Positions 6,859 to 8,762 of a stretch of DNA of 12,091 nucleotides are shown here, in pieces (position 1 is the first letter of the stretch; each line of letters starts with the position of its first letter). The translations under genes and the position numbers were made by a program. The notes under the pieces were generated by a model that was not told where the DNA came from, made no database searches, and saw only the letters and a list, made by a program, of their open reading frames with translations. This DNA is from Candidatus Rokuibacteriota bacterium (GTDB lineage Bacteria; Methylomirabilota; Methylomirabilia; Rokubacteriales; CSP1-6). The stretch lies in the NCBI GenBank assembly GCA_016184305.1, contig JACPCX010000091.1, positions 1 to 12,091 on the forward strand. Direction: 5' to 3'.

Positions 6859-7620
6859 ATGAGTGATGACCGGAAACTGGCGATGTTCATCGACTTCGAG
6901 AACATCGTCCGAGGCGTGAAGGAGGCCCAGTACAAGGGGTTCGAGATCAAGCTGGTGCTCGAGCGGCTCGTCGAGAAGGGCAAGATCATGGTGAAGCGGG
7001 CGTATGCCGACTGGAACCGCTACGCCGAGTACAAGCGCCCCTTCCACGAGCACGCCATCGAGCTGATCGACGTGCCCCAGAGCCGCTACAGCGGCAAGAA
7101 CTCGGCGGACATCCGGATGGTGGTGGACGCCATGGACCTGGCGTACGCCAAGCAGCACGTGGACACCTTCGCGCTGGTGTCGGGGGACTCGGACTTCTCC
7201 CCGCTCGTGTCCAAGCTCAGGGAGAACGATCGCTACGTGATCGGCCTCGGCGTCAAGTCCTCATCGTCGGAGCTCCTGGTCGGGAACTGCGACGAGTTCA
7301 TCTTCTACGAGGACCTGATCCGCGACTCCAAGAAGACCACGGCCCTGCGCGGGCTACCGGAGAAGAAGGCCGAGGCGTTCGCCCAGCTCATCGAGGCAGT
7401 CCTGGCGCTGCAGCGCGAGAACAAGGACACGCTCTGGGGCTCCATGGTCAAGCAGACCATGATCCGCAAGAACCCCGCGTTCAACGAAAGCTACTACGGC
7501 TACTCGACCTTCTCGAAGCTGCTGGAGGAGGCCGCCAAGCAGAAGATCGTCACGCTCGAGAAAGACGCGAAGAGCGGGACGTACATCATCACCTCCATCG
7601 AGGAGGGGCGCGCCGCTTGA
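6859..7620 (+). CDS. NYN domain (LabA/DUF88, PIN-like RNase) protein with C-terminal OST-HTH/LOTUS domain, 253 aa
   Basis: Acidic motifs FIDFEN, KRAYADW, KNSADIRMVVDA, SGDSDFSPLV. C-terminal PAFNESYYGYSTFSKLLE is LOTUS-like. Confidence 0.92.
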   Translation: MSDDRKLAMFIDFENIVRGVKEAQYKGFEIKLVLERLVEKGKIMVKRAYADWNRYAEYKRPFHEHAIELIDVPQSRYSGKNSADIRMVVDAMDLAYAKQHVDTFALVSGDSDFSPLVSKLRENDRYVIGLGVKSSSSELLVGNCDEFIFYEDLIRDSKKTTALRGLPEKKAEAFAQLIEAVLALQRENKDTLWGSMVKQTMIRKNPAFNESYYGYSTFSKLLEEAAKQKIVTLEKDAKSGTYIITSIEEGRAA

Positions 7621-7648: not shown

Positions 7649-8017
7649 TCAGCGCCGGGTGATGATGGCGATGCGGCCCCGGTCGCTCACGAAGGCCGTG
7701 GCGACCCAGCTGGTCGCGCTCACGAGGAGCGCCCCGCCCACCGCGGACCAGAAGCCGGCCACGTAGAAGCCGTTGACCACGACCGCCACGAACCAGAAGC
7801 ACAGCCCGTTGAGCACCAGCAGGAAGAGGCCCAGCGTGAACAGCGTGATGGGGAGCGTGAGGACCAGCAGGACGGGGCGGATGACGGCGTTGACGATCCC
7901 CAGCAGGAGGCCCGCCCCGAGGGCCGGGACGAGGCCATCCACCTCGATCCCGGGGATCACCGAGCCGGCGAGCACGATCGCCAGCGTGTTCATGACCACC
8001 CTCAGCAGGAATCCCAT
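7649..8017 (-). CDS. 4-TM phage holin-like membrane protein (YvlD/DUF360, holin superfamily IV), 122 aa
   Basis: Signature GIVNAVIRPVLLVLTLPITLFTLGLFLLVLNG and GFWSAVGGALLVS. No phage genes nearby. Confidence 0.88.
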   Translation of the reverse strand: MGFLLRVVMNTLAIVLAGSVIPGIEVDGLVPALGAGLLLGIVNAVIRPVLLVLTLPITLFTLGLFLLVLNGLCFWFVAVVVNGFYVAGFWSAVGGALLVSATSWVATAFVSDRGRIAIITRR

Positions 8018-8134: not shown

Positions 8135-8153
8135 GCACCCACGAAAGGGAACA

Positions 8154-8762
8154 GTGACTCGCATCCTGACCCTCACCGCCATGACCGTGGCGCTGTGGGC
8201 CGCCGCGTGCTCGGGGCAGCCGGATCCGCTGGCGGCCGGCGCGCTCACGATGGACCCGCGCCTCATCCGGGGCGCGGCCGCGGCCCCCGTCACTATCGTG
8301 GAGTTCTCCGACTACCAGTGACCCTACTGCAAGCGCGCCCAGCAGGTGCTGGGCCAGATCCTGGCGGAGTTCCCCGGCAAGGTCCGCCTCGTCTTCAAGG
8401 ACTTCCCGCTGGAGTTCCATGCAGGCGCCCGGCCCGCCGCCGAGGCGGCCCGCTGCGCCGCCCAGTCGGGGCGCTACTGGGAGTACCACGACCTGCTGTT
8501 CCTGGCGCAGCCCGAGTTCTCCCGCGAGGATCTCATCCGCTACGCCGCGCGCCTCGGACTCAACCGGGAGGCCTTCACCGCGTGCCTCGACAGCGGGCGG
8601 TTCAGGAAGGACGTCAACGCCGATCTCGCCGAGGGCGGGGCGCTTGGCGTGCGCGGGACGCCCACGTTCTTCATCAACGGCCGGCGCCTCGTGGGCGCCC
8701 ACCCCATCGAGACGTTCCGGGAAGCCGTGCAGGACGCGCTCGAAGATGGCGGTCGCAAGTAG
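8154..8762 (+). CDS. DsbA-family thioredoxin-fold oxidoreductase, probable lipoprotein and selenoprotein (Sec56, in-frame TGA at 8319-8321; UxxC = UPYC), 202 aa
   Basis: GAAAGGGA RBS, then GTG at 8154. Translation MTRILTLTAMTVALWAAAC-SGQPDPLAAGALTMDPRLIRGAAAAPVTIVEFSDYQ-U-PYCKRAQQV runs in frame into the listed 8346..8762 ORF (VRLVFKDFPL, AAEAARCA, cis-Pro GTPTFFING). EFSDYQ-x-PYC is the DsbA CxxC site. Confidence 0.9.
8322..8354 (+). promoter_or_regulatory. Putative bacterial SECIS element of the Sec-DsbA
   Basis: mRNA reads UGA-CCCUACUGCAAGCGC-GCCCAGC-AGGU-GCUGGGC. A perfect 7-bp stem (hairpin at 8337-8354) closes the loop AGGU, 22 nt after the UGA. Confidence 0.78.

Follow-up and report, generated by a model that had tools for sequence, protein, structure and literature searches.

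Selenoproteins of the DsbG-like kind have been predicted since 2005. DsbG-like (COG1651, with a UxxC motif) and DsbA-like selenoproteins are tabulated in PMC1088965, PMC1794560 and PMC2398784, and the Sargasso Sea and GOS surveys list a DsbG-like selenoprotein family (PMC1088965, PMC2398784). A 2026 review ties the DsbG-like group to NCBIfam NF041057, the Rcas_1661 family thioredoxin-like (seleno)lipoprotein, and describes most predicted selenoproteins in the group as functionally uncharacterised. The same review points to a genome in the Methylomirabilota for which 63 selenoprotein genes are predicted (PMC13188914). Exported and lipoprotein selenoproteins have been described as well (10.1101/2022.07.06.499078). 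A literature search for selenocysteine in Rokubacteria returned no relevant paper by title. The DsbA-like family presented here and the VKOR fusion discussed below may already be listed in the 63-gene genome paper or its supplements.

The stretch of Rokubacterial DNA analysed here (the window; 12,091 nt) carries one gene for an exported disulfide-shuffling enzyme at 8154-8762, with an internal TGA that is almost certainly read as selenocysteine (Sec). Its product is a further member of this known kind. With TGA taken as Sec, the region is a single 202-codon frame that contains EFSDYQ-U56-PYC59, WAAA-C19, C101, C144 and G-T169-P170-T-F (Table 1). The initial annotation had noted that the listed open reading frame, 8346..8762, lacks a CxxC motif and that reading through the TGA at 8319 restores a UPYC site. 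The 138-aa frame is indeed without the motif, and read-through yields one frame of 202 aa. The GTG start of the shorter frame falls inside the loop of the SECIS hairpin (8344-8347).

Both halves around the TGA are coding, since GC at the third codon position is 0.95 upstream and 0.93 downstream of it; in the upstream part, the remaining two forward frames give 0.67 and 0.60. The GTG start at 8154 is supported by two congeners, which have an ATG there; the ribosome-binding site proposed together with it is imperfect and is spaced by only 4 nt. Termination at the TGA had been expected to leave a 55-aa lipopeptide. This length applies to the precursor, and 37 aa would be left after cleavage at C19. 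In public records (NCBI, ENA, JGI, Logan), only the 138-aa tail is found, as a 29-member cluster without signal peptide or active site. The nearest named relative, from a Candidatus Rokubacteria genome, shows 90% identity across the catalytic domain. In RNA runs, only 0.05-0.16 of the words were present.

Table 1. Features of the selenoprotein gene in the window and loci of the VKOR-thioredoxin fusion.
Feature	Position	Strand	Basis
DsbA/DsbG-like (Thioredoxin_4/DSBA) selenoprotein gene, 202 aa	8154..8762	+	GTG start, TAG stop; domain matches, model, fold searches
Putative ribosome-binding site AAAGGG, imperfect	8144..8149	+	seen in the sequence; spacer of 4 nt
Signal peptide (Arg3, hydrophobic stretch) to lipobox-like WAAA-C19 (Cys19 codon 8208-8210)	8154..8210	+	pattern match only
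TGA, Sec56, attacking residue of UPYC	8319..8321	+	same column as the leading Cys of CxxC in PDB relatives; 38 distinct loci with TGA
Cys59, resolving cysteine	8328..8330	+	invariant in 25/25 rows; role inferred from thioredoxin fold
Bacterial SECIS-type hairpin GCCCAGC-AGGT-GCTGGGC	8337..8354	+	loop begins 22 nt past the UGA and has G as its second base
Cys101, helix 2 of the helical insertion	8454..8456	+	invariant in 25/25 rows; helix from model
Cys144, helix 5	8583..8585	+	invariant in 25/25 rows; helix from model
Thr169-Pro170, cis-Pro loop, T-P type	8658..8663	+	TPT invariant in 25/25 rows; cis geometry expected from fold
VKOR-Trx fusion loci	L061:1072-1860 (G002); L247 (G003); L057-L060; L261-L272	- (L061)	TGA at first Cys of Trx motif in 18 of 19 loci checked

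The active-site codon was compared across 190 loci (30 from 41 related genomes, 80 from genome contigs and 80 from metagenome contigs). It is covered in 189 of them and reads TGA in 43 and TGC or TGT in 146, which places the TGA at this codon beyond chance; because each scan used two patterns, one of which required Cys, these counts are not natural frequencies. The proposed Cys/TGA interchange at codon 56 is thus seen in the alignment. After merging of duplicates, 38 distinct TGA loci and 143 Cys loci remain, and the TGA is not a peculiarity of this strain. The active site of the TGA loci is UPYC or UPFC in 26 cases and UPHC in 10. TGA and Cys orthologues occupy one syntenic locus with the same gene neighbourhood, and two of the Cys orthologues lie in selA-positive genomes (G009 and G019).

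In a quick tree of 99 rows, midpoint-rooted and unfinished, with 22 database rows assumed to be Cys without their DNA, a single group (SH-aLRT 96) takes in 35 of the 37 TGA rows, intermixed with Cys lineages. The TGA label requires eight changes on this tree. A single origin of Sec with repeated reversions to Cys would fit, and is compatible with the common hairpin. Outside the main group, an Acidobacterial homologue (L139) and a distant paralogue in G013 (L040) have TGA at the same codon with other downstream sequence; these are possible independent gains of Sec. One further orthologue (G006:C76:110414-111008) is split over two frames, with TGA in the first piece, through a frameshift or an assembly error.

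The read-through product matches PF13462 (Thioredoxin_4, E 3.6e-34) and PF01323 (DSBA, E 7.5e-27), both over the cut-off. Its best NCBIfam match is NF041057 (E 7.6e-34), with 117.3 bits against a cut-off of 190; it is thus not a member of that family, though it resembles it. This cut-off is passed in none of the 41 genomes, and Cys paralogues (up to 172) outscore the clade of the window protein. The fold group, the UxxC motif and the lipoprotein theme are shared with the NF041057/DsbG-like family, whereas the window protein belongs to a separate Rokubacterial orthologue group with a hairpin of its own. The "DsbA-like form 1/2" selenoproteins (PF01323, COG2761/FrnE type) also have a DSBA domain and Sec at the first CxxC position, but represent a different subfamily. 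Two separate, signal-less FrnE-type DSBA proteins are encoded in the assembly, on contigs C63 (L239, DYL-U-PWC) and C200 (L244, DLL-U-PYC), and more FrnE-type TGA copies occur in congeners and other family genomes.

For residues 31-202, the predicted structure reaches a pLDDT of 96. Together, this model, the domain matches, the fold searches and the invariant TPT uphold the DsbA-like fold that had been proposed, with the elements of COG1651/DsbA-like proteins: a thioredoxin fold, a helical insertion, a CxxC-type site opening helix 1 and a cis-Pro loop. The top matches in the fold search are TsdA, 3GYK, Wolbachia DsbA2, the ScsC proteins and BdbD, and ScsC and BdbD are tied (Z 22.5 and 22.4). 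Corynebacterium diphtheriae TsdA (7UNN/4PWO) and Bacillus subtilis BdbD (3EU3) were found with a Foldseek E of 1.3e-12, TM of 0.88-0.89 and Z of 21-22. Both have a CPxC-type site, and TsdA also has a T-P loop. However, identity is about 30% or less, their active sites are of the Cys form, and the alignment shows no counterpart of the C101-C144 pair in TsdA. The ScsC proteins (Salmonella 4GXZ, Proteus 6MHH/4XVW, Caulobacter 7RGV), Silicibacter 3GYK and Wolbachia DsbA2 (6EEZ) superpose with Z of 21.5-23.0 and rmsd of 1.8-2.1 Å. For ScsC proteins, activity as oxidase and as reductase is reported (PMC11634996). In comparison with them, the window protein has no N-terminal oligomerisation segment and no scs operon nearby, and its attacking residue is Sec where theirs is Cys.

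Mycobacterium tuberculosis DsbA (Rv2969c) and Wolbachia alpha-DsbA1 (Z 16.6-19.6) have a structural disulfide between helices 2 and 5, as the window protein probably does, and likewise a T-P loop. They differ in being Cys-type enzymes with about 20% identity, and the mycobacterial enzyme is linked to VKOR, which here is patchy and fused to Trx. The structural disulfide of Mt-DsbA, C140-C192, joins helices 2 and 5 (PMC3853704). C101 and C144, the pair already suspected to be structural, lie in the same two helices of the model. A PDB search with a helical-domain fragment for a direct alignment of C101 and C144 gave no useful match, so the argument for their disulfide comes from helix placement. 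On this model, a closed C101-C144 structural disulfide is highly probable.

Export had been claimed in the initial annotation and is well supported at the sequence level, since a hydrophobic, signal-like stretch is seen in the inspected TGA orthologues whose sequence extends sufficiently upstream. The precursor would very probably pass through the Sec translocon. The membrane anchor claimed alongside has evidence on both sides. A lipobox-like WAAA-C19 is present and the assembly has two Lgt genes, but the loose lipobox pattern is found in only 8 of the 38 TGA loci (and in 14 of 120 database homologues). Most other TGA loci end their signal in A-x-A-Q, sister sequences exchange C-S-A-Q for A-V-A-Q, and the C-S-G-Q present here could serve as a signal-peptidase-I site. 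Lipidation at Cys19 in the window protein and its genus is rather likely on the sequence pattern, as a lineage-restricted property and not a family trait.

The protein is best explained as a monomeric exported thiol-disulfide oxidoreductase of the DsbA-like/COG1651 ("DsbG-like") type, in which Sec replaces the attacking Cys. Envelope proteins with disulfides or oxidised thiols would be the targets of the Sec56 selenolate, and Cys59 would then resolve the mixed bond. For its daily job, we put about an even chance on the isomerisation and repair of envelope disulfides, with electrons supplied by a CcdA-type carrier directly or via TlpA, and with new disulfides coming from a VKOR-Trx fusion where this is present. 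Several observations point in this direction. DsbB was found in none of 25 family genomes, VKOR occurs in 41 of 93 and brings its own Trx domain, and a CcdA-type domain or protein is present in all 41 genomes searched. The T-P loop and the fold matches to ScsC, TsdA and DsbA2 agree with such a role, as does Mt-DsbA, with the same extra disulfide and T-P loop, which in one study acted as an isomerase but did not oxidise hirudin (PMC3853704). Counting against it, both CcdA genes of the assembly (G000) adjoin TlpA-like genes, so that CcdA needs no other partner there. The tie between BdbD and ScsC and the UPHC loci also count against it.

The same selenoprotein could instead act mainly as a donor of disulfides to the envelope, reoxidised by VKOR-Trx or, in genomes with no DsbB or VKOR match, by oxygen, peroxide or small disulfides. 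We consider this a serious possibility, at somewhat less than even chances, and prefer isomerisation and repair fed by CcdA. No other exported DsbA-fold protein was found in G000, and only about 15 residues separate the signal from the catalytic domain, which leaves no room for a dimerisation domain. UPHC is an oxidase-type motif; UPYC and UPFC, on the other side, prevail among the TGA loci. The use of Sec in the VKOR-fused Trx domain speaks for a donor role, and the fact that VKOR brings a Trx domain of its own speaks against it. Substrate-oxidising BdbD and TsdA are among the top fold matches (PMC9974433), and the oxidase activity of ScsC can depend on environmental oxidation (PMC11634996). 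The nearest characterised relatives thus act both ways (PMC9974433; PMC11634996).

Cysteine parity was examined in the predicted proteome of G000. Among Cys-containing exported proteins, by a crude prediction, 61 of 112 have an even number of Cys, where a share of 0.36 is expected (z 5.3), while 359 of 838 cytoplasmic proteins are even, where 0.45 is expected. The G000 envelope probably makes disulfides, because this bias is present in exported and absent in cytoplasmic proteins. It speaks for a donor role, although genes and signals were called heuristically and metal-binding Cys pairs are included. Se-S bonds generally exceed S-S bonds in stability and would make a poorer disulfide donor, which weighs against the donor role.

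The genes around the locus name no redox partner among the conserved neighbours listed, which are NYN, a 4-TMS holin-like protein, often DoxX, a cupin or Rieske protein, XRE, LAB_N and an aminotransferase. Between them, 7649-8017 and 6859-7620 of the window encode the conserved NYN/LOTUS and 4-TMS holin-like proteins; related loci are L026, L027, L032, L083 and L151-L159. In many relatives a divergent DoxX-like membrane gene lies directly upstream. Elsewhere in the assembly, L251 (G000:C70:1046-1660) encodes a ResA/TlpA-like protein with a signal-like stretch and FTTT-U-PNC. It is probably an exported Sec oxidoreductase, judging from its sequence, and would be a natural partner of CcdA.

VKOR was found in G002 and G003 and not in G000 and G001, and a G000 contig stops where the VKOR-bearing G002 contig continues. 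The fusion has its own TGA, at the first Cys of the Trx motif (YGAYW-U-PAC), in 18 of the 19 loci checked. A hairpin is common to the TGA loci of this fusion, and the single Cys form is without it. In a search of the phylum, 34 of 53 genomes with a match have one TGA inside. The words "VKOR" and "vitamin K" do not occur in the text of the 2026 selenoproteome review (PMC13188914). No NCBIfam seleno-family matches the fusion, and the titles listed in a literature search on selenocysteine in bacterial VKOR were unrelated. The Sec VKOR-Trx fusion is thus a candidate for an uncatalogued selenoprotein. Cyanobacterial VKOR-Trx fusions form disulfides; our literature search found no paper on this. A link between the Sec form and the absence of VKOR, compared by eye, was not seen: TGA forms occur both with and without VKOR.

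The initial annotation had further suggested that Se-S chemistry shifts the enzyme from oxidase toward isomerase or reductase activity. Such a shift is not supported, since the one locus is occupied by a Sec form in some genomes and by a Cys form in others, selA-positive ones included, and Sec is found as well in the Trx domain of the phylum's VKOR fusions, which are of the disulfide-forming type. Sec would rather accelerate the exchange and leave the job unchanged, as the Cys versions occupy the same locus.

The assignment of the TGA to Sec draws on the hairpin downstream. It has a 7-bp stem and an AGGT loop (-13.5 kcal/mol) and lies within the published bacterial SECIS model for loop, stem and spacing (PMC13188914). 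A stem CCAGC....GCTGG with a purine-G loop is present in 36 of the 38 TGA loci and in none of the 143 Cys loci, three of which have the stem alone. This, with the recurrence of the TGA, bears out the original selenoprotein proposal. A looser model (-6.5 kcal/mol) finds 37 of 38 TGA and 10 of 143 Cys loci. Silent sites are frozen in the TGA loci: Arg is CGG in 25/25, Leu is CTG in 36/36 and the third base of the next codon is G in 36/36, where CGG makes up 35% of Arg codons and CTG 41% of Leu codons across the assembly. In 14 aligned TGA loci, 93.9% of cells are paired, against 9-50% in slid controls. Five of the seven stem pairs are invariant and just the two outer ones change on both sides; covariation is thin because the core pairs never vary. 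Folding energy was dropped as evidence, being no better than that of shuffles (z +0.33 to -1.02 in five folds), so that the support comes from conservation. Two Cys forms (L022 and L160) keep the hairpin stem with a Pro codon in the loop. Their stems are possibly SECIS relics, or an ancestral codon pattern that preceded the SECIS element. We strongly infer that SelB and Sec-tRNA would bind the hairpin and decode the UGA as Sec.

The selenium genes of the assembly bear on whether the TGA is a true stop, with selABC lost from the strain and the locus a recent pseudogene or the source of a short lipopeptide only. The presence of selABCD had been left to be confirmed. G000 (3.2 Mb, 88.8% complete) carries a Sec-type selD with its own in-frame TGA, but selA, selB and tRNA-Sec (selC) were not found in it. 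A lowered ARAGORN threshold, set for a divergent tRNA-Sec, returned only noise, and blastn with a congener's selC gave no match in the assembly. Two more family genomes, 98% (G010) and 95% (G012) complete, have a TGA-type selD and also returned no selA, selB or tRNA-Sec in the searches. These are probably assembly gaps as in G000; G010 also carries the TGA DsbA-like gene.

Against a true stop, selA is over the cut-off in 36 of 40 relatives, and in the three congeners, whose assemblies are larger (4.7-5.4 Mb), selA adjoins selB in 3/3. A canonical tRNA-Sec is whole in two of these and clipped by the contig start in the third, with selA, selB and selC in one cluster. The congener with the clipped selC is 97.5% identical to the window across 3.5 kb. 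On its cluster contig, the first 15 kb, including the cluster, have no match in G000, and the remainder matches at 93-98%; the break lies about 3 kb short of a G000 contig end, not exactly at the end. In four runs that contain the window (shares 0.87, 0.87, 0.87 and 0.60), 30 of 30 bins of the congener's selC-selA-selB stretch are covered, and the longest pieces over this stretch have 97-99% identity. No contig in these four runs joins the cluster to the window. The missing selA, selB and selC are likely a binning gap, since all three congeners and the window-holding runs contain the cluster.

About 15 other Sec candidates in the assembly, Sec-selD included, keep their frame across the TGA; the two FrnE-type proteins are counted here. 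Of the in-frame TGA genes, further ones of which came from a codon-model scan, 13 were scanned against models and all match peroxiredoxin, ResA-like, AhpD-like, rhodanese, UGSC or CYCXC models, two of them over the cut-off. On this evidence a true stop is very improbable. The window itself has an AhpC/TSA peroxiredoxin-like candidate on the opposite strand (739-1206, TGA at 1069-1071, DWGSI-U-TP) with a SECIS-type hairpin. Least probable of all is a reading of the UGA as Cys or Trp through a changed code or special tRNA, which would agree with Cys at codon 56 of orthologues, but TGA terminates ordinary genes elsewhere in the window, congeners have a canonical tRNA-Sec with selA and selB, and the hairpin tracks the TGA.

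The Sec reading repairs a gene that is kept as a 138-aa fragment in NCBI, ENA and JGI records. It also shows the SECIS element shaping the protein, as the loop imposes Arg or Gln where Cys forms often carry Pro. A wider picture, which we regard as speculative and rather doubtful, is that envelope disulfide handling in Rokubacteria and their kin runs on selenium through the Sec-DsbA-like protein, the Sec VKOR-Trx fusion and an exported Sec-TlpA. In the many family genomes with no DsbB or VKOR match, the Sec-DsbA protein would then be a partner-free donor, reoxidised via its selenolate. As a lead, the possible Sec-dependent VKOR-Trx enzyme of the disulfide-forming type may outweigh the DsbA-like find itself. 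The natural pairs of Sec and Cys orthologues at one locus offer a clean test of the role of Sec in an oxidising compartment.
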